64,000 bases of DNA, from positions 15,973-79,972 of the forward strand of contig JAZNJH010000008.1 in assembly GCA_045577925.1 (NCBI GenBank). Reading direction: 5' to 3'. Within the stretch, counting starts at the first letter, position 1, and every line of letters begins with the position of its first letter. This DNA is from Eubacteriales bacterium (lineage in GTDB: Bacteria > Bacillota > Clostridia > Oscillospirales > CAG-272). The notes beneath the pieces are model-generated. The model was not told the origin of the DNA. It did not search any database and worked only from the letters and a program-made list of their open reading frames with translations. Position numbers and translations under genes: made by a program. Shown here piece by piece: positions 7,257-49,518 of the stretch.

Positions 7257-9119
7257 TTACGCTTTTTTGCAGTTAACCTTTTCATCAATAAAGAAACGTT
7301 TGTACCATACAAGGAAAGTAAATACTGTCCAGATCTTTCTGCCTCTGTCGTGAGCGCGCTCAGTGTTGTTCTTGTGCTCGTCAAGAATAGCTACAAGCTT
7401 GTCGGTGTTAAAGAAGATAGCAGCATATTCGCTTGTGAAATACTCTTTGACAATGCCATAATACTTGTCCTCTCTGAGCCAATAGCGGATCGGAACAGGG
7501 AAGCCTTTTTTCTCTCTGTCAGCCCATGCATCGGGAAGAGTTTTGTTGGCAGCTTTTCTGAGAACAAACTTCGTGTTCTCAGGCGTTATCTTGTACCTGG
7601 CAGGTATTTTTGATGCGTGAGCGAGTACCTCTTTATCAAGAAAAGGCACACGTAATTCAAGAGATGACGCCATGCTCATCTTGTCAGCCTTTAGTAGTAT
7701 ATCACCAACCAGCCATAAATTTAAATCAAGATATTGCTTTTTTGAAAGCTCGTCAAGATGGGAAACTCGCTTGTAAACGGGTGAAGTGATATCTTTTACA
7801 CTCTTGCCGAACTTGTACTTGTCACATAGAATATCAACCGCTTCTGTTTCATCAAACACATGAGCCTGACCGATAAAATAATCTTCAGGTCTGCCCGAAT
7901 TTTTAATGATGAAATCGTGACCCTTGAAATAGGGAAGAGCTTTTGCACATTTCGCCAAAGCCCTGCGCATACAGCCGGGAATATGCTTGTATTTACGAGC
8001 TAAAGCCCTTTCATTGTATTCTTCATATCCGGCATATATTTCATCAGCACCTTCGCCTGAAAGAACAACGGTAACGTGTTCACTTGCAAGCCTTGCAAGG
8101 AAATAAAGCGGAACTGATGAGGGGTTAGACTGCGGTTCATCCATATGGTACTGAATATCCGAAAAAGCATCAAAACATTCGTCTGCAGTAAGTAACCTCT
8201 TGTGATTTTCAATACCAAGCTTGTCTGAAAGCTCAGCGGCATAGTCGGTTTCATTAAATTTGTTAAAATCAAATCCAACAGAGAAAGTCTTGTTTGGCAT
8301 AAGAGCCGCAGTAATATAGCTTGAATCAACACCACCCGATAAAAACGAGCCAACCTTAACGTCGCTTATCGAGTGAGCACTGACAGACTCACGCACAATA
8401 TTGTCAACTTCATCCACATATTCTTCAAAGAATTTTTCTTCACTTGTAAAATTCGTATCTGCATATCTTTCAATAGTGAGCTTTCCGTTTGCGTAGGAGA
8501 AAGAATGAGCCTGAGGGAGCTTGTACACGCCCTTGAAAAAAGTCTCGGTGTCAGCAGAGTATTGGAAAGTCAGATACGGACGCAGAGCTTTTTCATTAAC
8601 ACTCATAACAAAATCCGGGTGTTCGAGAAAACTTTTAATCTCAGAGCCGAAAAGTAAATTTCCATCATCTAAAACCGTATAGTAGAAAGGCTTGATGCCA
8701 AACATATCGCGCGCACCGAAAAGGGATCTTGTTTCAATATCCCAAATAGCAAAAGCGTACATGCCGCGAAGGCGCTTAACAATGTCGCGACCGAAATGAC
8801 GGTAGCCCGCAAGCAATACCTCAGTATCGCTGGTTGTAGAAAAGGATGCACCGTAGTTTTCAAGCTCGCTTCTCAATTCTCTGAAATTGTAAATCTCGCC
8901 GTTGAAAACTATAACAGAATTGCCGTCAGCACTTACCATAGGCTGATTTGCATCAGGCCTGAGGTCAAGGATGGAAAGGCGCCGGAAACCGAGCGTAATA
9001 CCATCGCCCATATACGTGTTTCCCATGTCGGGTCCACGGTGAATGATTCGCTCATTCATTCTGTTTATAATTTCTTCACGGCTTTCAAGAAAGCCTGTAA
9101 AACCGGCAAATCCGCACAT
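7257..9119 (-). CDS. asnB: Asparagine synthase (glutamine-hydrolysing) family amidotransferase
   Basis: Ntn nucleophile MCGFAGF at the N-terminus and PP-loop FLSGGVDSSYI; 620 aa. Confidence 0.9.
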   Translation of the reverse strand: MCGFAGFTGFLESREEIINRMNERIIHRGPDMGNTYMGDGITLGFRRLSILDLRPDANQPMVSADGNSVIVFNGEIYNFRELRSELENYGASFSTTSDTEVLLAGYRHFGRDIVKRLRGMYAFAIWDIETRSLFGARDMFGIKPFYYTVLDDGNLLFGSEIKSFLEHPDFVMSVNEKALRPYLTFQYSADTETFFKGVYKLPQAHSFSYANGKLTIERYADTNFTSEEKFFEEYVDEVDNIVRESVSAHSISDVKVGSFLSGGVDSSYITAALMPNKTFSVGFDFNKFNETDYAAELSDKLGIENHKRLLTADECFDAFSDIQYHMDEPQSNPSSVPLYFLARLASEHVTVVLSGEGADEIYAGYEEYNERALARKYKHIPGCMRRALAKCAKALPYFKGHDFIIKNSGRPEDYFIGQAHVFDETEAVDILCDKYKFGKSVKDITSPVYKRVSHLDELSKKQYLDLNLWLVGDILLKADKMSMASSLELRVPFLDKEVLAHASKIPARYKITPENTKFVLRKAANKTLPDAWADREKKGFPVPIRYWLREDKYYGIVKEYFTSEYAAIFFNTDKLVAILDEHKNNTERAHDRGRKIWTVFTFLVWYKRFFIDEKVNCKKA

Positions 9120-19340: not shown

Positions 19341-19369
19341 TTGACAATGAGGGCGTGTTGTGTTACAAT
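19341..19369 (+). promoter_or_regulatory. Sigma-A-type promoter of the pyr operon
   Basis: TTGACA (19341-19346), 17-nt spacer, TACAAT (19364-19369). Confidence 0.65.
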
Positions 19370-19495: not shown

Positions 19496-19524
19496 GTCTT
19501 GCCGCGTCGGGCAAGGCTTTTTTT
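19496..19524 (+). terminator. Intrinsic terminator inside the pyr leader (attenuator)
   Basis: gtcttgcc (19496-19503) / ggcaaggc (19510-19517), followed by seven T. It lies about 120 nt upstream of pyrC. Confidence 0.65.
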
Positions 19525-19640: not shown

Positions 19641-20831
19641 ATGAAAAAACTCGTGAACGCAAAGGTTATAGACTTAGGTATGCTCGACAGCTTTTCGCCG
19701 TCGGACGAGCTTTTGCATTCCCTTGATTTTGCCAAATATACTATTTTTCCCGGTTTTTGCGATGTGCACGTTCATTTTCGCGAGCCGGGATTTATTTATA
19801 AGGAAACGATAAAAAGCGGAAGTGAGGCGGCAGCGGCAGGAGGATATACTGCGGTATGTACAATGCCTAATCTGAATCCCGTACCCGATTCTCCCGAGAA
19901 TCTGAAGCTGCAGACAGACGCTATTGAAAAGGACGCGGTTATCGACGTGTATCCGTATGCATCAATAACAGTTGGCCAGCGCGGCGAAGAGCTTTCAGAT
20001 TTTGCAGCCCTTGCCGGCACAGCAATAGCATTTTCCGATGACGGACGCGGAGTTCAGTCGGACGATATGATGCTTAAAGCTATGCTCGAAGCAAAGCGGC
20101 TCGGGAAAATGATAGTAGCACACTGCGAGGTCAACTCGCTGCTCAATGGCGGTTATATTCACGACGGTGTATACGCAAAAGAACACGGGCACCGTGGAAT
20201 ATGCTCGGAGAGTGAATACAAGCAGATTGAACGCGACCTCAGGCTTGCGGAGGAAACGGGTTGCGCATATCACGTGTGCCATATCTCGACAAAAGAAAGT
20301 GTTGAGCTTATAAGGCAGGCGAAGGCGAGAGGAGTGGACGTAACCTGCGAAACAGCGCCTCACTACCTTGTGCTTGACGAAAACGACTTAAAGGAAGAGG
20401 GAAGATTCAAAATGAATCCCCCGATTAGAAGTAATGAAGACAAGCTTGCGCTAATCGAAGGCATATGCGACGGCACAATAGATATGATAGCGACCGACCA
20501 CGCTCCGCACTCAATTGAAGAAAAATCAAAAGGACTTGAAAAGAGCGCTTTCGGCATAGTCGGACTTGAAACGGCTTTTCCGGTTATGTACACGCATCTT
20601 GTGAAGAAAAATATAATAAGCCTTGAAAAGCTTATTGAGCTTATGGCGATAAATCCGAGAAAACGGTTTAAAATACCAATAGATAATGATTTTTCTGTTT
20701 GGGCACTTGATGAAGAGATAACGGTAAGCCCTGATGAATTTAAGTCAATGGGAAAGGCAACACCCTTTGATGGGGAAAATTTATACGGTAAACATATAAC
20801 AACGATATACAGGGGGAAAAGAGTATGTTAA
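19641..20831 (+). CDS. pyrC: Dihydroorotase
   Basis: DVHVHFREPG, AFSDDG, VAHCE, HVCHIST and ATDHAPH metal-ligand motifs. Confidence 0.9.
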   Translation: MKKLVNAKVIDLGMLDSFSPSDELLHSLDFAKYTIFPGFCDVHVHFREPGFIYKETIKSGSEAAAAGGYTAVCTMPNLNPVPDSPENLKLQTDAIEKDAVIDVYPYASITVGQRGEELSDFAALAGTAIAFSDDGRGVQSDDMMLKAMLEAKRLGKMIVAHCEVNSLLNGGYIHDGVYAKEHGHRGICSESEYKQIERDLRLAEETGCAYHVCHISTKESVELIRQAKARGVDVTCETAPHYLVLDENDLKEEGRFKMNPPIRSNEDKLALIEGICDGTIDMIATDHAPHSIEEKSKGLEKSAFGIVGLETAFPVMYTHLVKKNIISLEKLIELMAINPRKRFKIPIDNDFSVWALDEEITVSPDEFKSMGKATPFDGENLYGKHITTIYRGKRVC

Positions 20832-21925
20832 AGGAATTTGATAAAAAAATCGTACTTGAAGACGGAAGCGAGTATTACGGCTACGCGTTCGGCGCAAAAG
20901 AAAAAGAACGTGTTACCGAAATAGTATTCAACACCTCTATGGTAGGTTATCAGGAGATAGTGTCTGATCCGACGTATATAAATCAGACGGTAGTTATGAC
21001 GTATACCCTTATAGGTAACTATGGTATAACGGATGAGGACTTTGAGTCTAAAACACTAACAATTGGCGGACTTGTTGTAAGAGAATACAATAACTTCCCG
21101 TCAAACTTCAGATATACCAAAACTCTTGCCGAGCTTATGGAAGAAAATGACATTCCCGGTATATACGGACTTGATACCCGTAAGCTTGCGCGCTCAATCA
21201 GAGATAACGGTAGCTGCAGAGCGTTTATATGTTCAGCATCAACGCCTCTCGACAAAGCGCTTGAAATTCTGAAGTCAACTGAGTTTCCAAAGGACGAAGT
21301 TGCAAAGGTAAGCTGCAAAAAGAGATGGTACTCAAGAACACCTAACCCTAAGTATAACGTTGTTGCAGTAGACTGCGGAATCAAGCTCAGCATAGTACGC
21401 ACACTCAACGCAATCGGATGCAACGTAACTGTAATTCCGTGGGATACCCCTGCAAGTGAAGTTGAAATGATGAAGCCTGACGGTATTTTCATATCAGACG
21501 GGCCGGGCGATCCTGCAGACGCAGTTGCAGTAATCGACCTCATAAAAGAGCTCAAGGGCAATTATCCGATATTCGGAGAGGGCCTTGGACATCAGATGAT
21601 AAGCCTTGCTTATGGCGCAAAGATAAGCAAGCTTAAATTCGGTCACCGTGGATGCAATCATCCGGTCAAGGACCTTGAAACAGGACTTGTTTCAATAGAA
21701 ACTCAGAACCATTCGTTTGTTGTTGATAAAGAGAGCCTGACTAAAACAAAGCTTGAAGCTACGCACATAAATCTTCTCGATGATACAGTTGAGGGAGTAA
21801 GATGCGCAACAGATAAGGTTTACGGTGTACAGTATTACCCCGGAACAGAGAAAGGCCCCAAGGGCAGCGACAACTTTTTCGATAAATTTATAAAAGTAAT
21901 GAAGGAGGGCAAAGCAAATGCCTAA
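20825..21925 (+). CDS. carA: Carbamoyl-phosphate synthase small subunit homologue lacking the glutaminase catalytic triad
   Basis: Colinear CarA features: [36 protein letters not shown]. The GATase signature reads FGEGLGHQ rather than FGICLGHQ, and the C-terminal motif reads VQYYPG rather than QGHPE. Confidence 0.9.
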
Positions 21926-24900
21926 GAGAACTGATTTAAAGAAAATACTCGTAATCGGCTCAGGCCCTATTGTAATCGGTCAGGCGGCTGAATTCGACTA
22001 CGCCGGAACACAGGCGTGCCTCGCTCTCAAAGAAGAGGGTTATGAGGTAGTTCTTTGTAACTCAAACCCTGCAACAATTATGACAGACACAACTATTGCC
22101 GATAAGGTATATATGGAACCTCTGACACTTGAATATATAGCAAAGATACTCCGTTACGAAAGACCTGACGCGATAGTTCCCGGTATCGGCGGTCAGACAG
22201 GACTTAACCTCGCGATGCAGCTTGAAAAGAAGGGTATTCTCAAAGAGTGCCAGGTTGAGCTTCTCGGTACAAGCAGCGACAGTATAGAAATGGCAGAAGA
22301 CAGAGAGAGATTCAAGGAGCTTTGCGAAAGACTCGGTGAGCCTGTTCTCCCTTCGCTTATAGCTAATTCCATGGATGAAGGATTAGCGGCAGCAGAAGAG
22401 ATCGGATATCCCGTTGTTCTTCGCCCCGCTTTTACACTCGGCGGTACAGGCGGGGGCTTTGCCAATAACGAAGAAGAATTCAGAGAAATAATGAAGAATG
22501 CACTCGTGCTTTCTCCTGTACATCAGGTGCTCGTAGAAAAGAGCATCAAGGGATACAAGGAGATCGAATACGAGGCAATGCGCGATGCTAATGACACCGC
22601 AATTACAATATGCAATATGGAAAACGTAGACCCCGTCGGAATCCATACAGGTGACTCGATAGTAGTTTGCCCGTCGCAGACTCTTACGAACAAGGAGCAT
22701 CAGATGCTTCGCTCAAGTGCGCTTAAAATAATCCGTGCACTCAAGATTGAGGGAGGATGTAATATTCAGTTTGCACTCGACCCCCACTCGTTCAAGTATT
22801 ACCTTATCGAAGTAAATCCCAGAGTTTCGCGCTCATCCGCACTTGCATCCAAGGCAAGTGGCTTCCCGATAGCACGTGTATCAGCAAAAATAAGCGTTGG
22901 TATGCACCTTGACGAGATCCAACTTGCAAATACTCCTGCATCATTTGAACCTGCAATTGACTATGTTGTAACAAAGATGCCTCGTTTCCCGTTCGATAAA
23001 TTCACAACCGCGAATAATGTTCTCGGCACGCAGATGAAGGCAACCGGTGAGGTAATGAGCATCGGACGTACGATTGAAGAAAGCCTTCTCAAAGCAATCC
23101 GCTCGCTTGAAATTGGCGTGTACCACCTTCACATGCACAAGTTCGATTCTTATAAAGCTGACGAGCTTTTAGAATATGTGAAGCTTGGAACAGACGACAG
23201 AATTTATGCCATAGCAGAGCTTCTTCGCCGTGGTGCTGACATCGGTATGATCGCCGATGCAACGCAGATAGATATGCTCTTTATTGAAAAGTTCAAGAAT
23301 ATCATAGACGAAGAAAATGAGCTTAAGGCGAACGTCGGAAACCTCGACGTATTAAGAGAAGCTAAGAGAATGGGCTTCTGCGACAGAGCAGTTGCAGACA
23401 TGTGGTCAATGAGCGAGCTTGACGTTTTCAATATGCGTGTTAAAGAAAACATCATGCCGGTTTATAAGATGATCGACTCATGCGCTTCCGAGTTCAAGAG
23501 TTACGTTCCTTACCTTTACTCAACGTACGAAGAGGAAAACGAATCAGTAGTAACCGACCGTAAGAAAGTAATCGTTCTCGGTTCAGGTCCTATCCGAATC
23601 GGACAGGGCGTTGAGTTTGACTATTCAACAGTACACGCGGTATCAACAATAAGAAAAGCGGGTTATGAAGCTATAATAATAAACAATAACCCTGAAACAG
23701 TATCAACGGACTATACGACCTCAGATAAGCTCTACTTTGAGCCTCTCTGTACTGAGGACGTAATGAATATAATTATGCTTGAAAAGCCTGACGGTGTTAT
23801 CGCTTCTCTCGGAGGACAGACAGCAATCAACCTTGCAGAACCGCTCAGAGCACGCGGAGTCAAGCTTATCGGTACAGATTGCGATGCTATTGAACGTGCC
23901 GAAAACCGCGATTCTTTTGAAAAGATCCTTCACTCGCTAAGCATCCCTCAGCCTAAGGGTAAGGCGGTAACTAAAATTGAAGACGGCGTAAAGGCAGCGG
24001 CAGATATCGGATATCCCGTTCTCGTTCGCCCGAGCTTTGTTCTCGGCGGACGTGCGATGCAGATAGTAGCAAATGAAGAACAGCTTCGCCACTACCTCAA
24101 GACAGCGGTTGAAATTGATGATGATAAGCCCGTACTCGTTGATAAGTATATACAGGGCAAGGAAGTTGAAGTAGATGCAGTATGCGACGGTAAGGACGTG
24201 TTCATTCCCGGTATCATGGAGCTTGTTGAAAGAACAGGTATCCACTCGGGTGACTCGATAAGCGTTTACCCCTCATTCAGTATTTCGCAGAAAGTCAAGG
24301 ATAAGATTATTGAATATACCGAAAAGCTGGGACTTGGTATCGGAATCATCGGACTTTTCAATATCCAGTTTATCGTTGATTCAAACGAAGATGTGTATAT
24401 CATAGAAGTAAACCCCCGTTCATCACGTACTGTTCCGTTTCTTTCCAAGGCAACGGGATACAGCCTTGCAGATATTGCAACACTTGTAATACTCGGCAAG
24501 TCACTAAAGGAGCAGGGCTATACAGAAAAATATCCGGCAGAAAAGAAGCGCTATTATGTAAAAGTTCCTGCCTTCTCGTTCTCGAAACTTCGCGGACTTG
24601 ACGCGTACCTCTCGCCCGAAATGAAGTCAACGGGTGAAGCAATAGGTTATGATGATAAGATGACACGTGCGCTTTACAAAGCACTTCAGGCATCGGGTAT
24701 GAACCTTATGAACTACGGAACAGTTCTTGTAACAGTAGCAGACAGAGATAAGGAAGAAGCGCTTCCTCTTATAAGAAGATTCTATAACCTCGGTTTCAAT
24801 ATTCAGGCAACTGAAGGAACAGCTGAGTTCTTGAAACAACACGGGATACGCACGAGAGTAAAGCAGAAGATCAGTGAAGGATCTGATGATATCCCTAGTG

Positions 24901-25094
24901 CTATAAGACAGGGATACGTTACCTACGTTATCAATACCCGTGACGTTGCAAGTGGCGCCGAAAACGACGGACACGCAATAAGACAGTGCGCCGTTGAAAA
25001 TAACGTAACTATATTCACGGCGCTCGATACAGTACGTGTTGTGCTTGACGTGCTTGAGGAAACAACGCTTCTCATTTCAACTATTGATGCGTAA
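21918..25094 (+). CDS. carB: Carbamoyl-phosphate synthase large subunit
   Basis: 1058 aa, two ATP-grasp halves ([23 protein letters not shown] and [22 protein letters not shown]) and a C-terminal MGS-like allosteric domain. Confidence 0.95.
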
Positions 25095-25111: not shown

Positions 25112-25846
25112 ATGAAGCAGACCTTGTTTGAAATAACTCAAAATAAAGCACTGACCTCAAGCGTGTATAAAATGGTGCTTAGAGGAGATACAACAGATAT
25201 CACTTCACCGGGGCAGTTTGTTAATATAAAGCTTGACGGACTTTATCTGCGCAGACCTATATCAGTCTGTGACTGTGAAGAAGGAAAACTTACTCTTATC
25301 TATAAGGTGGTAGGACACGGCACAGAGCAGATGAGTAAAATGTCAGATGGCAGGCTTGATATTCTGACAGGTCTTGGTAACGGATACGATACAATAAAAT
25401 CAGGAGACCACCCTCTGCTTGTAGGCGGAGGTGTTGGTGTGCCGCCGCTTTACATGCTCGCTAAAAAGCTTATTAGCGATGGCAAAAAGGTAAGCGTAGT
25501 GCTTGGTTTCAATACAAAAGACGAGATATTCTGTGAAGAAGACTTCAAGGCACTCGGCGCAGAAGTTTACGTTACGACCGTAGACGGAAGCTATGGAGTA
25601 AAAGGCTTCGTTACAAACGTCATTGATTCTATCGACTATACCTACACGTATTCGTGCGGGCCTGAGCCTATGCTTAAAGCGCTTTACAACGCTTCGAAGA
25701 CCTCAGGACAGTATAGCTTTGAAGAACGTATGGGATGCGGATTCGGAGCGTGCATGGGATGCTCGTGCAAGACATTATACGGCAACAAGAGAATATGTAA
25801 AGACGGTCCTGTGCTTGAAAAGGAGGAGATAATATGGGAAAAATGA
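25112..25846 (+). CDS. pyrK: Dihydroorotate dehydrogenase B electron-transfer subunit
   Basis: FAD motif LRRPISV and the C-terminal 2Fe-2S cysteines MGCGFGACMGCSC...ICKDGP. Confidence 0.9.
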   Translation: MKQTLFEITQNKALTSSVYKMVLRGDTTDITSPGQFVNIKLDGLYLRRPISVCDCEEGKLTLIYKVVGHGTEQMSKMSDGRLDILTGLGNGYDTIKSGDHPLLVGGGVGVPPLYMLAKKLISDGKKVSVVLGFNTKDEIFCEEDFKALGAEVYVTTVDGSYGVKGFVTNVIDSIDYTYTYSCGPEPMLKALYNASKTSGQYSFEERMGCGFGACMGCSCKTLYGNKRICKDGPVLEKEEIIWEK

Positions 25847-26748
25847 ACGTAAATTTATGCGGCATTGAGCTTGATAACCCGATTATCCCCGCAAGCGGAA
25901 CGTTTGGATTCGGCAGAGAATTTGCTGAGCTTTACGATATAAATATTCTAGGTACTTTCTCGTTTAAAGGAACAACAAAAGACCCTCGCTTCGGTAATCC
26001 CACACCGAGAATTGCCGAGTGCAAGGCGGGCATGATAAATGCCGTTGGACTGCAGAATCCCGGTGTAGAAAAGGTAATAGCCGAAGAACTTTCTGAGCTT
26101 CGTAAAATATTCAATAAAAAAGTAATGGCAAACGTGAGTGGATTTTCTGTTGAGGATTATGCATACACGTGTGAAAAGCTTGATAAGTGTGAACAGGTCG
26201 GCTGGCTTGAAGTAAACGTTAGCTGCCCTAACGTACACGGCGGCGGCATGAGCTTCGGTACGTCTCCGGAAGCGGCGGCGACAGTTACAAAGGCAGTAAA
26301 GGCTGTCACAACAAAGCCTGTTATAATCAAGCTTTCGCCTAACGTTACAGACATCGTAAGCATAGCAAAAGCTTGCGAGGAGGCAGGTGCCGACGGTATC
26401 AGCCTTATAAACACACTTCTCGGAATGAGAATAGACCTCAAGACAAAAAAGCCTGTTATAGCCAATAAAATGGGCGGCTTCTCGGGCGATGCGATTTTCC
26501 CCGTAGCCGTAAGAATGGTATACCAGGTAGCCACAGCAGTAAAAATACCCGTTGTCGGTATGGGCGGCGTATCATCTGCCGAAGACGTGATTGAAATGAT
26601 GCTTGCAGGTGCAACTGCCGTTGAAGTAGGTGCTGCAAACCTCATAAATCCGTACGCCTGCCGTGATATAATTAACGATCTCCCGGCGGTAATGGAAAAA
26701 TATAAAATAAACTCTCTTGCCGAGATAATCGGTGCAGCGAGAGACTGA
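25834..26748 (+). CDS. pyrD: Dihydroorotate dehydrogenase B catalytic subunit
   Basis: PASGTFG, class 1 catalytic Cys in [11 protein letters not shown], and the GGV FMN phosphate site. Confidence 0.9.
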
Positions 26749-26765: not shown

Positions 26766-27464
26766 ATGGGTAAGGACGTAATTATTGCCTGCGATTTTAA
26801 TAGCGCAGAGCAGGTCTTCGCATTTCTCGATAAATTTACAGACACAAAGCCTTTCGTAAAGATCGGCATGGAGCTTTATTATGCGGAAGGTCCGCAAATC
26901 GTTAAGGAGATCAAAGCAAGAGGACATAAGATCTTCCTTGATCTCAAGCTTCACGATATTCCCAACACAGTAAAGAAGTCTATGGCGGTTCTTTCAAACC
27001 TAGACGTTGATATGTGTAATCTTCACGCATCAGGTACAGGTAAAATGATGGAAGCGGCCCTTGAAGGACTCACACGTCCAGACGGCACACGTCCGCTTCT
27101 TATCGCAGTAACTCAGCTTACTTCAACAGATGAAGAAACCATGAGAACTGACCTTCTTATAGAAAAGCCTATCGACGAGGTTGTTATGCATTACGCAAAA
27201 AATGCAAAGAACGCAGGACTTGACGGTGTGGTTTGCTCGCCTCTTGAAGCAGGTAAGGTTCACGATCTCTGCGGTAAGGACTTTATGACGGTAACTCCAG
27301 GCGTCCGTTTTGCAGACGGCGACATTGGCGACCAGAAGAGAGTTATGACTCCTGCGCAGGCAAAGGAAATAGGATCCGACTATATAGTAGTCGGAAGACC
27401 GATAACTGCGGCGGAAGATCCGGTAGCGGCGTATAAGAGATGCGTTACTGAATTCGTAGGGTAA
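26766..27464 (+). CDS. pyrF: Orotidine 5'-phosphate decarboxylase
   Basis: [12 protein letters not shown] active-site motif and a VVGRPI C-terminal motif. Confidence 0.9.
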
Positions 27465-27482: not shown

Positions 27483-28115
27483 ATGGAAAAGCTTATAGCA
27501 AAAGATTTACTATCAATAAAGGCGGTATTTTTCCGTCCCGACGAGCCTTTTACATGGGCAAGCGGAATCAAGAGCCCCGTATATTGCGATAACAGACTCA
27601 CACTTACAGCACCCAAGGTACGTAACGACGTAGAAAACGGACTCTGTGAGCTTGTAAAGAAGCATTACCCTGAATGCGAAGTACTTATGGGAACTTCAAC
27701 AGCCGGCATCGCTCACGCAGCTATCTGCGGACATATCCTCGATATGCCTATGGGCTACGTTCGTTCAGGCGCTAAGGATCACGGCAGACAGAATCAGATC
27801 GAGGGTAAGCTTGAAGCAGGACAGAAGGTCGTCGTAGTGGAAGACCTTATCTCAACAGGCGGAAGCGTTATCGAAGTAGTAAACGTTTTAAGAGAAGCCG
27901 GTGCCGAAGTTCTCGGTATCGTCAGCATCTTCACATATGGTATGAAGAAAGGTCTTGACCGCCTTGCGGAAGCAAACGTCAAGAACGTGTCGCTTACAAA
28001 CTTTGACGTTATCGCAGAGGTAGCGTCTGAAGAAGGCTACATTAAGCCAGAAGACGTAAAAAGACTTATCGCTTTCAGAAACAATCCCTCAGACGAAAGC
28101 TGGATAAAAGCGTAA
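27483..28115 (+). CDS. pyrE: Orotate phosphoribosyltransferase
   Basis: PRPP-binding [13 protein letters not shown]; 210 aa. Confidence 0.9.
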
Positions 28116-28155
28116 AAACGTTTTGTGCCGCAATGGCGGCTGAATGGAGAAAATC

Positions 28156-29268
28156 ATGAGAAGTCTTATGGATCCGCTTGATTTAAGCGTTGAGGAAATT
28201 GACGAGCTTATTGCGCGTGCAAACGATATTATAGATAACCCGGCAAAATACAGCGAAATGTGCCGCGGCAAGAAGCTTGCAACACTCTTTTTTGAACCGT
28301 CAACAAGAACTCGACTGAGTTTTGAAGCGGCTATGTACGAGCTTGGCGGAAATGTTCTCGGCTTTTCTGCTGCAAACAGTTCATCTGCTGCAAAAGGTGA
28401 AAGCGTTGCTGATACGGCAAAAACGGTTAGCTGCTATGCCGATATTATCGCTATGCGCCACCCTCTTGAGGGCGCACCTTACGTTGCATCACTTAACTCA
28501 GACGTCCCGATAATAAATGCAGGAGACGGAGGACATAACCATCCGACCCAGACCCTTGCAGACCTTTTAACGATAAGCCGCGAAAAGGGAAGACTCAATA
28601 ATCTTACAGTCGGATTTTGCGGAGACCTCAAATACGGCAGAACTGTTCACTCGCTTATAATTGCACTTGCAAGATATGCAGGTATTAAAATAGTTCTCAT
28701 ATCACCCGATGAACTAAAACTTCCCAACTACGTTAAGATCGGCGTTCTTGACAGACAGAATATTCCTTACAGTGAATGTGACGATCTTGAAAAAGCTATA
28801 CCTGAGCTTGATATACTCTATATGACACGCATACAGGGTGAGCGCTTTGCAGATAAAGACGAGTATGAACGTCTCAAGGACTTTTACATACTTACTCCCG
28901 ATAAGCTAACCCATGCTAAAGAGGACCTTTCGATAATGCATCCGCTTCCCAGAGTAAATGAGATAAGCGTTGCAATAGATAATGATAAGCGTGCTTGCTA
29001 TTTCAAGCAGGTAAGTAACGGTAAGTATATCCGTATGGCGCTTATACTTAAGCTGCTCGGTATTACTGAGTCTGATGCGCCCAAACCTGATAAGAGCAAG
29101 GAAATTCTTATAAAAGATAAGCTTGTATGTAAGAATACAAGATGTATTACCTCCTCTGAACAGGAGCTTGAACAGGTCTTCAAGGTAACAGACGTTGATG
29201 CCGGAATCTGCAGATGTATATACTGCGAGAAGAAATCCGAAAAGCTTTATAGCGAAATAAATCTTTAA
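28156..29268 (+). CDS. pyrB: Aspartate carbamoyltransferase catalytic chain fused to a PyrI-type zinc domain
   Basis: ATCase motifs [21 protein letters not shown] and HPLPRVNEI. The C-terminal ~50 aa, [10 protein letters not shown]...CRCIYCEKK, match the PyrI Zn domain (Cx4C...Cx2C). ATG at 28156 follows GGAGA; an alternative ATG lies at 28144. Confidence 0.85.
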
Positions 29269-29276
29269 ATTATAAT

Positions 29277-29300
29277 GGCGTACAGTCTTTTCTGTACGCC
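29277..29300 (+). terminator. Terminator hairpin at the end of the pyr operon
   Basis: ggcgtacag (29277-29285) / ctgtacgcc (29292-29300); the downstream T-tract is weak. Confidence 0.5.
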
Positions 29301-29362: not shown

Positions 29363-30724
29363 ATGTTAAGAAGTGAAAAAATAAAGAGAATATATGCCTT
29401 TATAATAAGTGCACTCCTTATCGTATCGATCGCGGCGCTTGTTTGGGCTATGAATAATCAGACTGCGCTTTGCAGAGACGATTATTCATATTCGTATACC
29501 TTCGCAGTCAAAGAAAACAAATTCAGAATAACAAATTTCAGGCAGATCATAGATTCTCAGATAAATCACTATAAGGTGATGAACGGACGAGCTGTAACAC
29601 ATACGCTTGCGCAAACCTTTCTGATGTTTGATAAAAGTATCTTTAATCTAATCAACACAGTGGCGTTTATTATTCTGATCTGTCTTATAGTATATCACTC
29701 AAAACAGGCAGGGAAGAACCACTTTTCGATAATGTTTCTTTCCGCTTTTTTGAGCCTCTGGTTCTTTACACCGTCATTCGGTAAGAGTTATTTGTGGCTA
29801 ACAGGGGCGTGCAACTACCTCTGGGGCATTCTTATAATACTTTTATACCTTTTGCCGCTCAGACACGCTTTGAACGGACCCTGCGGCATGAAGTTGACGA
29901 CCATGATAGTCCTGTCGCCTCTGTATTTTGTTTCAGGGCTTATAGCAGGGTGGACAAACGAAAATACGTCAGCGGCTCTAATGGTTATTAGTTTGCTTCT
30001 GATAATTGCAATAACTATAAAATACAGGCGCTTACCCGTGTGGCCACTTACAGGTTTTGCTGGCAACATCTGCGGATTTCTTTTGATGATACTTGCACCG
30101 GGTCAGTCGGTAAGACTTGAAGCAAACGGCGGATTCGGTTCTGTTGATGTGTGGCTTAAGCGCTTTGTGTCTATCAGTACCGATATGTTTAAATATCATG
30201 GGATACTCCTGATGCTGGCCTTTATATTTGTAGTGATAGCCATAATAAGAAAAAACAAACCAAAAGACTTTCTTATCACAGGTATATTTTTCGTTGGTTG
30301 GCTTGCATCTGTATATTCAATGATACTCTCACCATACTTTCCGCTTCGAACCTGGAGTGGACCGACGATACTTTTAACGATAACGCTTTTGTCTGCAATG
30401 TCGCAAGCATTGCCTGAAGATATTGGCAGAAAAACAAGTGTTATTATATGCATTATAGCCGCATGTCTTGGATATATATTTGCCGAGGATTATAAGCAAG
30501 CATATAATGATGTCAGCATAACCAAAGCGGCGGTTGATGCGCGTGTGGAAGCCATAAACAACGCTAAAAGAGAGGGAGTAAGCGAAATCGAACTCGATGC
30601 CATATACGGGCATTCAAGATTTGATGCATACGTTTCCATAGGAGATTTGAACAATGACTCATCAACATGGCCAAATACGGCAATTGCTATGTACTTTGGA
30701 CTTGATGAGGTTAGAAAAAAGTAA
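29363..30724 (+). CDS. Polytopic membrane protein (about 11-12 TM), possibly a GT-C-like/DUF6056-type glycosyltransferase
   Basis: 453 aa with hydrophobic segments throughout. A conserved-looking N-terminal loop CRDDYSYSY...NGRAVTHTLAQ and a soluble C-terminal tail. The function is a guess. Confidence 0.6.
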   Translation: MLRSEKIKRIYAFIISALLIVSIAALVWAMNNQTALCRDDYSYSYTFAVKENKFRITNFRQIIDSQINHYKVMNGRAVTHTLAQTFLMFDKSIFNLINTVAFIILICLIVYHSKQAGKNHFSIMFLSAFLSLWFFTPSFGKSYLWLTGACNYLWGILIILLYLLPLRHALNGPCGMKLTTMIVLSPLYFVSGLIAGWTNENTSAALMVISLLLIIAITIKYRRLPVWPLTGFAGNICGFLLMILAPGQSVRLEANGGFGSVDVWLKRFVSISTDMFKYHGILLMLAFIFVVIAIIRKNKPKDFLITGIFFVGWLASVYSMILSPYFPLRTWSGPTILLTITLLSAMSQALPEDIGRKTSVIICIIAACLGYIFAEDYKQAYNDVSITKAAVDARVEAINNAKREGVSEIELDAIYGHSRFDAYVSIGDLNNDSSTWPNTAIAMYFGLDEVRKK

Positions 30725-30751
30725 AAGGAACGGGGAAACCCGTTCCTTTTT
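30723..30751. terminator. Bidirectional terminator between the membrane protein gene and pdp
   Basis: aggaacggg (30726-30734)-gaaa-cccgttcct (30739-47), flanked by A-run and T-run. Confidence 0.75.
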
Positions 30752-32048
30752 ATATAATTTCAAAAATAAGCGGATGCTCTTCAGGTTTGCTATCAGAATA
30801 AGTTATCGATGACTTAAATATTTCAAAGGCTTCGGTGGCAAGCGCGGGAGTTGATGTGTGAAGCTCGGCAATTATATCGCCATCATTAACCTTGTCACCC
30901 GTTTTTTTCTTTAGAATAATACCGGCAAGCGGATCAATCCTTGAATTTTTGTCTGTACGGCCTGCACCGAGTTTTGTACTTGCAAGCCCAATCTTCTCTG
31001 TGTCCATAGCACAGATATACCCCTCGGTTTCAGCTTTCACCGGTACGACAACATTTGCTTTGCCAAACATATCGGGTGCTGATATATAACGAACGTCACC
31101 GCCTTGATACCCGATCCACTCAATAAACTTTTTGTATGCCGAACCCGATGCAAGTGTCTCACGGGCAAGCTCTATACCTTCAGAGTCGGATATTCCTCTG
31201 ACAGATGCTACAATCATTCCTGCAAGCGTTATCGAAACCTCTCTTAAATCGTCAGGGCCTCTTCCGGCAAGCACTTCAATCGCTTCCTTAACTTCAAGCA
31301 CGTTGCCGATAGCATAGCCGAGAGGCGTGTTCATGTCCGTTAAAGCCGCGCGAACGTTTCTGCCGCATCTTTTTCCGATATCACACATAATATGTGCCAG
31401 TTTCTTTGCGCTTTCAATATCGTGCATGAAAGCGCCGCTTCCGACTTTTACGTCAAGTACTATATTATGAGAGCCTGCGGCGATTTTCTTGCTCATTATA
31501 CTTGATGCAATAAGTGGCGCCGATTCAACCGTGCCCGTAACGTCTCTGAGGGCATAAAGCGCCTTGTCGGCCGGAGCAAGCAAACCACTTTGACCAACAA
31601 CCGCTATGTTTATATCTTTCACCTGATTTATAAATTCAATGGGCGTAAGCTCACTTTTGTAGCCGGGTATACTTTCAAGCTTGTCAACAGTACCGCCGGT
31701 GTGGCCCAGCGCCCGGCCTGACATTTTCGCTATCTTACATTCAAGCGCCGCCGTAATTGGCGCTACTATAAGCGTTGTTTTGTCGCCAACACCGCCCGTG
31801 CTGTGCTTGTCAGCAGAGAGCTTGCCAAAAACAGAAAGATCGAGCATATCACCCGACTTAGCCATGGCATCGGTAAGCTTTGCAGTCTCTTTTGTCGTCA
31901 TACCGGCAAAACAAACAGCCATAAGGAAAGCTGAGAGCTGATAATCGGGTATGGAAGCACCGGTAACACCGTCTATCAGAAAATCTATCTCGTAATCTGA
32001 AAGCTCCTGACCCGAGCGCTTCTTTTTTATTATGTCAATAAAGTTCAT
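30750..32048 (-). CDS. pdp: Pyrimidine-nucleoside (thymidine) phosphorylase
   Basis: DKHSTGGVGDKTT phosphate-binding motif; 432 aa. Confidence 0.9.
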   Translation of the reverse strand: MNFIDIIKKKRSGQELSDYEIDFLIDGVTGASIPDYQLSAFLMAVCFAGMTTKETAKLTDAMAKSGDMLDLSVFGKLSADKHSTGGVGDKTTLIVAPITAALECKIAKMSGRALGHTGGTVDKLESIPGYKSELTPIEFINQVKDINIAVVGQSGLLAPADKALYALRDVTGTVESAPLIASSIMSKKIAAGSHNIVLDVKVGSGAFMHDIESAKKLAHIMCDIGKRCGRNVRAALTDMNTPLGYAIGNVLEVKEAIEVLAGRGPDDLREVSITLAGMIVASVRGISDSEGIELARETLASGSAYKKFIEWIGYQGGDVRYISAPDMFGKANVVVPVKAETEGYICAMDTEKIGLASTKLGAGRTDKNSRIDPLAGIILKKKTGDKVNDGDIIAELHTSTPALATEAFEIFKSSITYSDSKPEEHPLIFEII

Positions 32049-32058
32049 ATTGCCTCCA

Positions 32059-33231
32059 TTATCGCTTTAAAATGGCATCAGCAAAGCTTTTGCCGGGAGT
32101 TTCAAAATCAACTCCAAGTATGTCGCATATAGTAGCCGCAATATCTGCAAATGTTGATCTTGTTGAAAGATTAACAGGCCTTATATCTTTTCCGTAAATA
32201 AGCAGGGGAGTGTATTCACGCGTGTGATCGGTGCTTAGGTCGCCCGGATCACAACCATGGTCTGCCGTGATGAAAAGAATATCACTATCGTTCATTTTAT
32301 CAATAAAACTTGAAATTTGCTTGTCTGCTTCAGACAAAGCCTTTGCATATCCGTCAATATCGTTTCTGTGACCGTAAATTGAATCAAAATCAACGAGGTT
32401 TGTAAAGCACAGACCGCTAAAATCACGATTTAATAGTTCATGAGTCAGCCTCATACCATCATCATTTGATTTTGATAGCAACGTATCGGTAACACCACAA
32501 CCTGCAAAAATATCCGTTATTTTGCCAATGGCAATTACGTCACCGCCGCTTGTTTTGATCGCATCAAGCATAGTTTCACTCGTTGGTTCAAGTGAAAAAT
32601 CGTGCCTGTTCGCTGTGCGCTTGAACTTGGGATACTCTCCAATAAACGGCCGGGCAATAACTCTGCCAACAGCATGCCTGCCACAGAGAAGCTTTCGCGC
32701 TATACGGCAATATTCGTATAGCTTTTCAGGTGCTACTATATCTTCGTGCGCGGCTATCTGGAAAACGCTGTCCGCGGAAGTATAGACGATAAGCGCACCG
32801 CTTTGAATATGTTCCCGTCCATAATCGCGTATAACATCTGTTCCGGAATAAGGCTTGTTGCACAAAATCTTTCTTCCTGTAAGTCTTTCAAACTCGCTTA
32901 TTATCTCATCAGGAAATCCGTTAGGATAAGTTGGCAGAGGAGTGTCAGATATGATTCCAGCAATCTCCCAATGGCCAATCGTAGTATCCTTGCCGCATGA
33001 AGCCTCAGACATACGTGCATACGCCGCAAGTGGCGAATCTATACAACCTAAATATTCCTGTCCATCAATATTTCCTATTCCAAGACGTTTAAGTGTCGGA
33101 ATATTAAAATACGCAGAGCTTGAAATGCGTCTGAGCGTATCAGTTTCTTCATCGTGAAAGTCAGCGGCATCAGGCATGGCACCGATTCCGAGACTGTCGA
33201 GGACTATCAAAAATATTTTTCTGTTGTTCAT
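32059..33231 (-). CDS. deoB: Phosphopentomutase
   Basis: N-terminal IVLDSLGIG and ITADHGCDPG metal-binding motifs; 390 aa. Confidence 0.9.
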   Translation of the reverse strand: MNNRKIFLIVLDSLGIGAMPDAADFHDEETDTLRRISSSAYFNIPTLKRLGIGNIDGQEYLGCIDSPLAAYARMSEASCGKDTTIGHWEIAGIISDTPLPTYPNGFPDEIISEFERLTGRKILCNKPYSGTDVIRDYGREHIQSGALIVYTSADSVFQIAAHEDIVAPEKLYEYCRIARKLLCGRHAVGRVIARPFIGEYPKFKRTANRHDFSLEPTSETMLDAIKTSGGDVIAIGKITDIFAGCGVTDTLLSKSNDDGMRLTHELLNRDFSGLCFTNLVDFDSIYGHRNDIDGYAKALSEADKQISSFIDKMNDSDILFITADHGCDPGDLSTDHTREYTPLLIYGKDIRPVNLSTRSTFADIAATICDILGVDFETPGKSFADAILKR

Positions 33232-33956
33232 TTATTCTCCATTTTGACTGCCGTGTCAAGTGCAATCTCCATCATCTTCACAAAGGTAGTCTGTCTTTCT
33301 TCGCTTGTTGTCTGCTCGCCTGTCAGTATATGGTCTGATATCGTGCATATAGCAAGTGCAGACTTTCCTGCGCGTGCTGCAGTCATATATAGGCCTGCCG
33401 CTTCCATTTCAACTGCGAGTACACCCATTTTTCTCCATGCGTCTGTTGCAGATATATCATCACTGTAAAATCTGTCAGAAGATAGCAGATTGCCAACGTG
33501 GAAAGTGCTATTATGCTTTTCTGCCTGCTCTATGGCAGTTTTCATAAGAGTATAGTCTGCAATCGGTGCGAAGCTTCCGGGAAGCCTATACTGTCCTGCA
33601 AATGCAGAATCAGTGCAGGCGCCCATACCGATAACTATATCTCTGAGCTTTAATTTTTCGCTCATAGCACCTGCAGAGCCTATTCTGATAATGTTTTCAA
33701 CGCCAAAGAAATTGTAAAGCTCGTATGAGTATATTCCGATTGACGGCATGCCCATACCGCTCGCCATAACACTTACGTTAACACCTTTGTATTTTCCCGT
33801 ATATCCCTGAATTGAACGTACGTTGTTTATAAGTCTTGCATTTTCAAGAAAGTTTTTTGCAACAAATTCGCTTCTTAAAGGGTCGCCGGGCATGAGGACG
33901 GTTTTAGCAAAATCATCAGGGGTAGCATTTATGTGAGGAGTAGGGTAGTTTTTCAT
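33228..33956 (-). CDS. deoD: Purine nucleoside phosphorylase, DeoD type
   Basis: PTPHINA..., GMGMPSIGIYSYEL and AVEMEAAGLY motifs; 242 aa. Confidence 0.9.
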   Translation of the reverse strand: MKNYPTPHINATPDDFAKTVLMPGDPLRSEFVAKNFLENARLINNVRSIQGYTGKYKGVNVSVMASGMGMPSIGIYSYELYNFFGVENIIRIGSAGAMSEKLKLRDIVIGMGACTDSAFAGQYRLPGSFAPIADYTLMKTAIEQAEKHNSTFHVGNLLSSDRFYSDDISATDAWRKMGVLAVEMEAAGLYMTAARAGKSALAICTISDHILTGEQTTSEERQTTFVKMMEIALDTAVKMENK

Positions 33957-33977
33957 TTTGTAAACCTTCCTTGTATA

Positions 33978-34652
33978 TCAATATCCGCTTGCATTTTCAT
34001 TTTTAACAAGCTTTACGATTCTACTCGTGCCGAGTCTTGAAGCGCCGAGTTTTATAAACTCCTTGGCATCTTCAAGGGATGAGATGCCGCCTGCAGCCTT
34101 GATTTTTACGTGAGGTGCAACATGGTCTGAAAAGAGAATGATGTCTTCTTTCGTAGCACCGCCGGTAGAAAAACCTGTTGACGTTTTAATATAATCCGCA
34201 CCCGACTTACTGACTATTTCGCACATTTTGATTTTTTCTTCATCAGTTAAAAGACACGTTTCAATAATAACTTTGAGTATTTTGTCACCGCAGGCAGCCT
34301 TTACAGCTTTGATCTCAGCAAGGATATTATCATATTCTCGATCCTTGAGCATGCCGAGATTTATGACCATGTCAATCTCATCAGCACCGTTTTCGATAGC
34401 ATTAGCCGCTTCGAAGCGCTTAGCTTCTGTAGTTGAATATCCGTTTGGAAATCCGATAACTGTGCATATACGTACACGTGAATTGGCGTATTCAGCCGCT
34501 CTTTTTACAAAAGAAGCAGGAATACACACAGAAGCAGTCTTGTAAGCTATTCCGTCATCAATGATCTGTTTAATATCAGAAAACTTTGCAGTTGTGGAGA
34601 GCAGAGTATGGTCGACCTTCGCGAGAATTTCTTTTATGTCCATTATTTTCAC
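33978..34652 (-). CDS. deoC: Deoxyribose-phosphate aldolase
   Basis: IDHTLL, the Schiff-base lysine in DYIKTSTGF, and VKAAGGI. Confidence 0.9.
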
Positions 34653-48296: not shown

Positions 48297-48338
48297 AAAT
48301 ACATAAATAGTAATCAAACATAAGGAGGAGTGGCTATT

Positions 48339-49352
48339 ATGGATAAATCAATAAACGAGAAACTGAACGGCCTTCCTTCAATAGCGCGTGAATACTGTAT
48401 GAGTAAGCTGGTAATAGAGAATCGCTCGCCCAAAACTGTTGCTGAGTATGCTCTTGATTTATCTGTATTCTTCAAATATATGCGCGTTCACAAAGAATCT
48501 CTGAGCATCGACGTTTATGATAATAATGCGATATCAGAGATCGATATAAGTAATATAGATATTAAGTTCATAAACAGTATATCAACTCTTGATATATATG
48601 AATTCCTGATATATACCCAAAGTATCAGAGGTAACGACTGGGCGTCACGCGCCCGTAAGCTTTCGGCGATCAAGAATTTTTACAAATACATTACGGTTAA
48701 AATGCATTTGAGCGAACATAACCCTGCAAGAGATATAGAGAGCCCAAAAGCAAAAAAAACCTTGCCCAAATACTTGACTTTAGAAGAAGCGCAAACTCTT
48801 TTGAATACAATAGCCGGGGACGAGGGTTCAAAAACGCTTGACAGGGATTACGCAATTGTAACTTTGTTTCTGAATTGCGGTATGCGTTTGTCTGAGCTTG
48901 TTGGCATAAATTTATCCGACATAAGTGCAGACAAATCTACGCTGAGAGTAGTTGGTAAAGGAAATAAGGAGCGTATTATATATTTAAACGATGCCTGCAG
49001 AGACGTGCTTGATTCGTACCTTGCAGTGCGCGCTCTTATATCGGGAATCACTGAACCTAATGCGCTGTTTATAAGCAACAGAGGTGTACGAATGAGCGTA
49101 AAAACGGTACAGTGGATGGTTTATAAGTATCTGAAGCTGGCAGGTTTCGAAAATAAAAAACTTTCAGTACATAAATTAAGACATACCGCGGCAACACTGA
49201 TGTACCGTACAGGTAAAGTAGACGTGCGAGTGCTCAAAGATATTCTTGGTCATGAGCAACTTAATACTACACAGATATATACACACGTCAGTGATGAATC
49301 TATGCGCGATGCAATAGATTCAAACCCGATCTCACACATCAGGAAGACGTGA
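48339..49352 (+). CDS. Tyrosine site-specific recombinase, XerC/XerD family
   Basis: SAM-like N-domain. Catalytic R (NCGMRLSEL), HxxR (HKLRHTAAT), H (LGHEQ) and Y (TQIYTHV). ATG at 48339 lies 10 nt after AAGGAGG. Confidence 0.85.
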   Translation: MDKSINEKLNGLPSIAREYCMSKLVIENRSPKTVAEYALDLSVFFKYMRVHKESLSIDVYDNNAISEIDISNIDIKFINSISTLDIYEFLIYTQSIRGNDWASRARKLSAIKNFYKYITVKMHLSEHNPARDIESPKAKKTLPKYLTLEEAQTLLNTIAGDEGSKTLDRDYAIVTLFLNCGMRLSELVGINLSDISADKSTLRVVGKGNKERIIYLNDACRDVLDSYLAVRALISGITEPNALFISNRGVRMSVKTVQWMVYKYLKLAGFENKKLSVHKLRHTAATLMYRTGKVDVRVLKDILGHEQLNTTQIYTHVSDESMRDAIDSNPISHIRKT

Positions 49353-49435
49353 TTTTAAAATATCAACAACTAAATAAACAACTTTTATCATTAACTTGTA
49401 TAATTTAATGAATTTGAATATTTTTGCAAAAACTA

Positions 49436-49464
49436 TTGCATATTTTATCACCGTATGCTATAAT
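49436..49464 (+). promoter_or_regulatory. Sigma-A-type promoter of argG
   Basis: TTGCAT (49436-41), 17-nt spacer, TATAAT (49459-64). The -10 box is embedded in the palindrome tgctat-aatg-atagca. Confidence 0.5.
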
Positions 49465-49518
49465 GATAGCATAATATAACACTAAAAACTAATATTTATT
49501 CATATGGAGGCAAACGAA

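Follow-up and report, generated by a model that had tools for sequence, protein, structure and literature searches.

A CarA without the class I glutaminase triad in a clostridial pyr operon, the putative structural partner of a probably ammonia-using CarB

The carA gene and its active-site residues

The window, by which we mean the whole stretch of 64,000 nucleotides analyzed here (Eubacteriales bacterium of the Oscillospirales lineage CAG-272, assembly GCA_045577925.1, contig JAZNJH010000008.1, positions 15,973 to 79,972 of the forward strand), contains a pyrimidine biosynthesis (pyr) operon with the genes for the small subunit (carA) and the large subunit (carB) of a carbamoyl phosphate synthetase (CPSase). 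The original prediction, made from the letters of the sequence, was that CarA has lost all three catalytic residues of its glutaminase and that the CarAB complex would have to use free ammonia, as does vertebrate carbamoyl phosphate synthetase I (CPS I). We find the three residues replaced in the window's CarA and in a large set of relatives, and consider a catalytically dead CarA on an ammonia-using CarB the probable explanation. The two genes and the two altered motifs are:

20825..21925 (+): carA, CPSase small subunit with a putatively dead class I amidotransferase domain, from family, fold and alignment
21918..25094 (+): carB, CPSase large (synthetase) subunit, 1058 amino acids, complete, with all CarB Pfam domains
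21572..21595 (+): nucleophile elbow of CarA, FGEGLGHQ, with Glu252 for E. coli Ile268 and Gly253 for Cys269
21836..21844 (+): Y-P-G (Tyr338, Gly340) for the His353-Pro-Glu355 motif, from alignment and codon reading

The open reading frame of carA is uninterrupted and encodes 366 amino acids. As had been stated, it is of full length and colinear with CarA: the Pfam family CPSase_sm_chain (PF00988) is matched by residues 9-135 over profile positions 1-126 of 126, GATase (PF00117) by residues 181-357 over profile positions 2-189 of 190, and TIGR01368 scores 411 bits versus a cut-off of 307. The ATG of carB lies at 21918 with GGAGG upstream, and direct reading of the sequence verified the overlap proposed for translational coupling, 8 nt being shared with the carA stop (ATGCCTAA). 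The order of the domains (CPSase_sm_chain, then the class I amidotransferase fold), the full length and the carB partner all place the protein in the CarA family.

Alignment with E. coli CarA chains (1bxr, 1jdb and others) by phmmer, and alignment by MAFFT, both put the three triad columns where they had been predicted, namely Gly253 (GGC, 21581-21583) at the nucleophile C269, Tyr338 (TAC, 21836-21838) at H353 and Gly340 (GGA, 21842-21844) at E355, the codons having been read directly. Beside the nucleophile, I268 is replaced by Glu252 in both alignments, and E-G at the elbow is found in 6 of 6 members of the window's own group, which consists of six sequences, 77-95% identical, all with FGEGLGHQ. 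None of the 150 canonical relatives varies in the triad columns, and neither does any of the 78 distant bacterial genome loci. At 19 of the 135 columns invariant in the canonical sequences the window's CarA differs, 16 of these lying among the 77 in the amidotransferase domain and 3 among the 58 in the N-domain; in a leave-one-out control a canonical sequence differed at a mean of 0.30 invariant columns (all 135). The Cys-His-Glu triad required of a glutamine-hydrolyzing CPSase (EC 6.3.5.5) is thus absent, and because Cys, His and Glu are replaced by Gly, Tyr and Gly no glutamyl-thioester would be formed. The fold is kept, the catalytic residues are lost and the gene is under purifying selection, which are the marks of a pseudoenzyme.

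The gene is found repeatedly. An identical protein is on record at NCBI (P0364), and a relative of 95% identity, in which the three residues and the operon are the same, is present on 7 contigs from at least 5 samples. Within the window's group dN/dS is 0.05-0.12 in the amidotransferase domain and 0.015-0.07 in the N-domain. The amidotransferase domain has diverged 2.2 times as much as the N-domain, compared to 0.85 times in 5544 canonical pairs (5-95% range 0.64-1.20), which indicates relaxed catalytic constraint in a domain whose fold is kept. The AlphaFold2 model of CarA has a mean pLDDT of 91.2 and a pTM of 0.90, most of the amidotransferase domain being at pLDDT 94-98, and Foldseek gives E. 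coli CarA (TM 0.90-0.91) and, with a TM of 0.85, the N-terminal part of human CPS1 as its closest structures.

One could ask whether carA is simply decaying, or is an artefact of assembly, in a cell that salvages its pyrimidines or obtains carbamoyl phosphate in another way. A nucleoside salvage cluster (pdp, deoB, PNP, deoC) does adjoin the operon, and the amidotransferase domain does evolve faster than in canonical relatives. We nevertheless hold this for very improbable, since the frame is intact, dN/dS is low, the same state recurs across a deep clade and many samples, the pyr operon is complete and its carB, to which the gene is translationally coupled, is highly conserved, and the structural model is confident. 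Selective loss of chemistry rather than gene decay, as originally proposed, is therefore upheld, also by the persistence of the Cys-less state while a clade of 79 sequences diversified and by the coupling of carA to an intact carB at the loci fetched.

Cys-less CarA in relatives, and the residues around the active site

The triad substitutions recur in relatives, across the window's clade and beyond it. A first homologue search revealed three Cys-less groups among the nearest relatives. A second search started from a Cys-less CarA of 61% identity, encoded in the genome of an uncultured member of the Eubacteriales (L007), and brought the number of Cys-less sequences to 80 among the 230 aligned. 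By neighbour-joining, 79 of these 80 form one clade that includes the window (clade 1); it persists, with 78 members, on a tree of the N-domain only, so that the grouping is not an artefact of the changes at the active site. The remaining sequence, P0078, falls within the canonical clade and lost the Cys separately. In a scan of a genome collection by query-specific peptide words, 2 of 80 loci were Cys-less species representatives (L006 and L007).

In metagenomes the pattern P-[IVM]-F-G-x-G-L-G-H-Q, searched at the DNA level, matched at least 120 contigs. Among the matches listed, 103 metagenome contigs encode a CarA with Gly at C269, and 17 are not CarA, one looking like a TrpG/PabA-type amidotransferase and the rest being out-of-frame chance matches. 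The record names of the metagenome matches include human-gut, giraffe and fermentation assemblies, and the animal-gut niche that had been suggested fits those of the relatives (ruminant, giraffe and human-gut assemblies).

One human-gut lineage, on contigs of 0.4-0.76 Mb, seeded a third search. In the clade that it yielded (clade 2), 120 of the 120 best matches are without Cys, His or Glu; one cluster at 90% identity has 2371 members, and the only names attached to the clade are Oscillospiraceae and Candidatus Fimenecus; an organism resembling Ruminococcus bromii is a guess at its source. Of the 150 nearest cluster representatives at 50% identity, 138 could be aligned, and about 46 of these are Cys-less. 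On a tree of 285 sequences, which is rough and whose sampling is biased to Cys-less sequences, parsimony counts about 9 changes, and there are 14 maximal clades without the Cys. As a rough estimate from the sequences there were several to many independent losses of the Cys, and the alignments indicate that the loss is common to many gut Clostridia.

Three metagenome CarA (L132, L161 and L177) have Cys to Gly at the nucleophile as their only change, the nine other signature positions being canonical (SNIGQTHEPD). In these the Cys may have been lost very recently or, because TGY to GGY is one change, a single-base error may be responsible. The TrpG/PabA-like match (L125, SDBT01320364.1) is a short class I amidotransferase with PVFGIGLGHQ at the elbow and QFEPSS for the His-Pro-Glu motif; triad loss may not be confined to CarA.

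Around the triad, the window's CarA is altered at the following places:

20972..20974 (+): Thr50 for E. coli Ser47, a column with Ser throughout the 150 canonical sequences and with Thr, Ala, Ser or Val in the Cys-less clade
21497..21499 (+): Asp225 at E. coli Asn240, beside the oxyanion-hole residue Gly241; Asn in 150 of 150 canonical sequences, Glu, Gln or Asp in Cys-less ones
21653..21655 (+): Cys277 at E. coli Gly293, which lines the ammonia tunnel; Gly in 149 of 150 canonical sequences
21698..21700 (+): Glu292 for E. coli Thr308, a column with Thr throughout the 150 canonical sequences
21851..21865 (+): loop K343-G-P-K-G347 at E. coli P358-G359-P360-H361-D362; P358K and D362G, with G359 and P360 kept

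Invariant in the 150 canonical sequences and replaced among the 80 Cys-less ones are S47 (which we take to be a glutamine-binding residue in the E. coli structures), N240, C269, T308, H353, E355, P358 and D362; K202, H272, Q273 and K287, likewise invariant in canonical CarA, are also replaced in some Cys-less lineages. In the first alignment T308 is replaced in 80 of 80 Cys-less sequences, which are those of clade 1 plus P0078; Thr is kept in 120 of 120 of clade 2. Of the 80, 79-80 retain the scaffold residues G241, P242, G243, P245, G267, G271, G359 and P360, and S35 and M36 as well. Judged by these columns, the residues lost are a coherent functional module. The statement that the conserved blocks flanking the motifs are preserved needs a correction, since two of them are not fully canonical, SDGPGDP carrying N240D and another carrying Cys277 at G293. 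With nucleophile, base and acid gone and the second shell (N240, T308, P358, D362) replaced, glutamine would not be hydrolyzed by the class I mechanism, as had been foreseen.

Of the tunnel residues, S35, M36, G359 and P360 are kept in the window's CarA and G293 is Cys277, as judged by alignment only. In the G293 column the window's clade has Cys in 64 sequences, Ala in 5, Ser in 3 and Thr in 2, and clade 2 has Ser in 119 of 120. The tunnel leading from the dead site would thereby be narrowed at Cys277. In clade 2 the CarA tunnel is rebuilt (S35C, M36T, G359D, P360 deleted).

The Cys at G293, present in 64 of the 80 clade-1 sequences, 26 of which keep His353 and an acid at 355, raises the question whether glutamine could still be the nitrogen donor by a non-canonical chemistry, either with Cys277 as a relocated nucleophile or with a separate glutaminase feeding the complex. 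L270, Q273 and N311 are kept in the window's CarA, as are G241 and G243; all five are presumably glutamine-pocket residues in the E. coli structures. N240, T308, P358 and D362 are, however, also replaced, and the operon contains no glutaminase gene, so that we regard glutamine as the donor as quite improbable. The relocated nucleophile was rejected for the window's group, where position 277 varies between Cys, Ser and Ala and neither His353 nor Glu355 is there to activate a thiol; the rejection covers this group, not the 26 relatives with His and an acid at 355.

CarA could also be a ligand sensor that binds glutamine or another metabolite without hydrolyzing it and tunes CarB allosterically, ammonia remaining the substrate. 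The strong purifying selection on the dead domain and the partly kept glutamine pocket would agree with this, as would three new acidic residues, N240D, I268E and T308E, which are fixed in the window's group at or beside the old site. But S47, N240 and T308 are replaced, and other Cys-less lineages have replaced Q273 and H272, so that the clade shares no conserved ligand site, which makes a sensor unlikely. That the three acidic residues attract ammonium is speculation.

carB and the pyr operon

The operon has the order pyrC, carA, carB, pyrK, pyrD, pyrF, pyrE and pyrB, the last fused to the C-terminal domain of PyrI; pyrC and carA overlap by 7 nt. Besides carA and carB the features are:

19341..19369 (+): promoter-like site in the pyr leader, TTGACA, 17-nt spacer, TACAAT, with TG; 11 of 12 consensus positions
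19496..19524 (+): GC-rich terminator-like hairpin with T-run in the pyr leader, about 120 nt before pyrC
19641..20831 (+): pyrC (dihydroorotase), Pfam DHOase and Amidohydro_1
25112..25846 (+): pyrK, from Pfam
25834..26748 (+): pyrD, from Pfam
26766..27464 (+): pyrF, from Pfam
27483..28115 (+): pyrE, from Pfam
28144..29268 (+): pyrB fused to a PyrI zinc domain, 374 amino acids, followed by a hairpin at 29277-29300

The promoter-like site is the top-scoring one in the region and is a consensus match only. The leader hairpin may be an attenuator; the leader matched no Rfam family (including the PyrR site), and the window has no pyrR gene.

Every Cys-less carA fetched (clade 1 and P0078) lies directly 5' of carB with an overlap of 8 nt, the exception being L216-L219, in which the two genes abut without it. 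At most Cys-less metagenome loci carB adjoins carA, and at a few it lies upstream. The clade 1 arrangement is pyrC, carA, carB, pyrK, pyrD, pyrF, pyrB.

Through successive Cys-less relatives the identity to the window is 97%, 89-93%, 80% and 76% for CarB and 95%, 77-82%, 61% and 67% for CarA, CarB being the better conserved of the two. An adaptation of CarB to ammonia was looked for in about 40 conserved columns that differ from distant canonical CarB, and was rejected, nearly all of these differences being common to the close canonical relatives L093-L095; of the remaining candidates, V220A, Y261H/F/C and F343C, not one holds consistently in the Cys-less lineages. C232 and A314, the gate residues, are unchanged, and A251C also occurs in a canonical relative. 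No CarB change specific to Cys-less lineages that would raise the affinity for ammonia was found in these comparisons.

At CarB residue 261 (22698-22700), four residues before R265, 99% of canonical sequences, close relatives among them, have Tyr; the window has His, the rest of its group Phe or Tyr, and L007 Cys. This is the only position near the region of the CarA 353-362 loop that varies preferentially, although inconsistently, in Cys-less lineages. The CarB of the human-gut clade is short (998 amino acids) and very divergent (L139, 5419-8415 on OUPZ01000002.1; L100, L138, L156, L168, L175); its tblastn segments are 30-38% identical to the window's CarB, and the conserved N-terminal motif reads GPVVIGSSSEYDYS.

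The place of carA in this operon bears on a further explanation, in which the Cys-less enzyme is an ammonia-dependent paralogue specific for pyrimidines and the genome has in addition a canonical glutamine-dependent CarAB for arginine and general supply. The Cys-less clade sits in the operon pyrC-carA-carB-pyrK-pyrD-pyrF-pyrE-pyrB, its closest canonical relatives have a stand-alone carAB, and two CPSases are so arranged in Bacillus (PMC8121099). The presence of argG in the window indicates that the cell also needs carbamoyl phosphate for the synthesis of arginine. However, canonical carAB inside a pyr operon is common in other Clostridia, so that the position alone is no sign of a paralogue; the stand-alone carAB of P0078 is also Cys-less; and the claim that this is the only CPSase in the window, inside the pyr operon, was borne out by tblastn, no further carA or carB being present in the 64 kb, nor a second one on any fetched contig of the clade. 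We consider a second, canonical CarAB possible but rather unlikely. Such a paralogue is compatible with the ammonia mechanism and changes the physiology.

An internal control is provided by an AsnB-type asparagine synthase (7257-9119, minus strand), whose N-terminal nucleophile Cys is intact (MCGF). Glutamine-dependent amidotransfer has therefore not been abandoned in general, and the loss is specific to CarA.

As to the surroundings, what the catalytic chain encoded by pyrB carries of PyrI, the regulatory chain, is no more than the C-terminal zinc domain (about residues 323-371), and the same fusion is found in relatives (L001, 17339-18451; L216, 16699-17784). Located 3' of the operon terminator is the gene of a DUF6056 protein of 453 amino acids (29363-30724, plus strand), followed by the nucleoside catabolism and salvage cluster (30750-34652, minus strand), which is convergent to the pyr operon and encodes pyrimidine-nucleoside phosphorylase (pdp), phosphopentomutase (deoB), a phosphorylase of the PNP/UDP family and the aldolase DeoC. 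At 48330-50745 (plus strand) a gene of the phage-integrase family lies directly upstream of argG, which stands alone with no other arg genes nearby.

Comparison with known carbamoyl phosphate synthetases, and consequences

In human CPS1 (PDB 5dou, 5dot; EC 6.3.4.16) the glutaminase-like domain is inactive, the catalytic Cys being Ser294, and free ammonia is the substrate (PMC4655335). De Cima et al. reported that Gln318 at the position of E. coli G293 blocks the ancestral tunnel, and proposed another route for ammonia from outside (PMC4655335). The window's CarA likewise retains a glutaminase-like domain without the nucleophile, and the G293 position is filled in nearly all Cys-less CarA. The bacterial proteins thus repeat two features of CPS I and not one, which makes the analogy drawn in the original prediction stronger than claimed. 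In other respects the systems differ. CPS I is a single mitochondrial polypeptide of 1500 residues that needs N-acetylglutamate, whereas the window has separate carA and carB genes in a bacterial pyr operon, without fusion of the polypeptides; all three triad residues are gone from its CarA, and nothing indicates control by N-acetylglutamate. The origins of the two are independent.

With E. coli CarAB (EC 6.3.5.5) the window's proteins share architecture, domain order, fold and gene pair (39% identity, TM 0.90-0.91). In contrast to E. coli CarAB, where the triad is essential and invariant, its loss in the window's clade is natural, fixed and clade-wide, and is accompanied by changes in the second shell and the tunnel. 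Mutants of the E. coli enzyme with Cys269 replaced by Gly (C269G) or Ser (C269S), attributed to Rubino et al. in 1986, reportedly keep ammonia-dependent synthesis. In engineered small-subunit mutants (C269S, G359F; PDB 1c30, 1m6v) ammonia-dependent synthesis remains after loss of the glutamine route, going by the title of Huang and Raushel (2000), according to which the enzyme with its tunnel blocked can no longer use glutamine but can still use ammonia.

Ammonia-using enzymes are known or proposed from other prokaryotes. For CarB2 of the gut bacterium Bacteroides thetaiotaomicron, Liu et al. (2021) proposed from genetics an ammonium-dependent CPSase (PMC8121099). CarB2 has no small subunit and stands beside a canonical CarAB, whereas in the window the dead CarA is kept and coupled to CarB, which is accordingly not an orphan. 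The ammonia-using systems of archaea, the minimal CPSase of Methanobrevibacter smithii and the carbamate-kinase-like enzyme of Pyrococcus (PMC6022934, PMC8121099), have no CarA-like subunit and are either a much smaller enzyme or of a different fold.

From these comparisons we propose, with a probability of roughly 0.7, that the CarA of the window is dead and structural and that its CarB uses ammonia, the pair being a bacterial counterpart of vertebrate CPS I. The carA product would be a pseudo-glutaminase that has kept the two-domain CarA fold and the partnership with CarB, serving as structural or allosteric partner without catalysis. CarB, being intact, would use free ammonia, making carbamoyl phosphate from bicarbonate, two ATP and the ammonia of the cytoplasm, which by analogy with the proposal for vertebrate CPS I probably enters by a route other than the old tunnel. 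A bacterial CarB alone is reported to work as an ammonium-dependent CPSase (PMC8121099). Extended to the relatives, and going by their sequences, enzymes with a Cys-less CarA probably take free ammonia.

Several points weigh against an ammonia-using CarAB. The glutamine pocket is partly kept, so that binding of a ligand without hydrolysis is possible, and no ammonia-specific change was found in the CarB compared. The closest canonical relatives have a stand-alone carAB as opposed to the pyr-embedded Cys-less clade, and in Bacillus a CPSase embedded in the pyr operon is the pyrimidine-specific arrangement. Lastly, E. coli CPSase requires very high concentrations of ammonia (PMC6245113).

A bacterial CarA without the triad was not found described in the literature searched, most subscription journals lying outside it, and in the same literature CarB2 of B. 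thetaiotaomicron was the only other proposed bacterial ammonium-dependent CPSase. Two papers state as a rule that all bacterial CPSases are glutamine-dependent; the Cys-less CarA would contradict this rule. They pass TIGR01368 (P0001, P0002, P0133 and others) and are named by NCBI glutamine-hydrolyzing carbamoyl-phosphate synthase small subunit, which, going by their active sites, is probably a systematic misannotation. As a consequence, metabolic models of gut and rumen Clostridia probably misassign the nitrogen donor of pyrimidines and perhaps that of arginine.

The Cys-less CarA provide a large natural set, defined by sequence, of bacterial CPSases without the canonical glutamine route. The changes resembling those in CPS I, including that of the tunnel residue, arose independently, and the set is also useful for studying the way by which external ammonia gets to the carboxyphosphate site. 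A wider proposal, which we put forward tentatively and with some doubt, is that gut and rumen Clostridia, including abundant Oscillospiraceae of the human gut, repeatedly made CarAB ammonia-dependent, with a dead glutaminase, a plug at G293 and CarA as scaffold, and have it as their sole CPSase. If true, the synthesis of pyrimidines and of arginine in these organisms would draw directly on free ammonia, and the rule that all bacterial CPSases depend on glutamine would be overturned. The ammonia requirement of ruminococci has long been known from classical nutrition studies; the proposal, if correct, would give a molecular reason for it.

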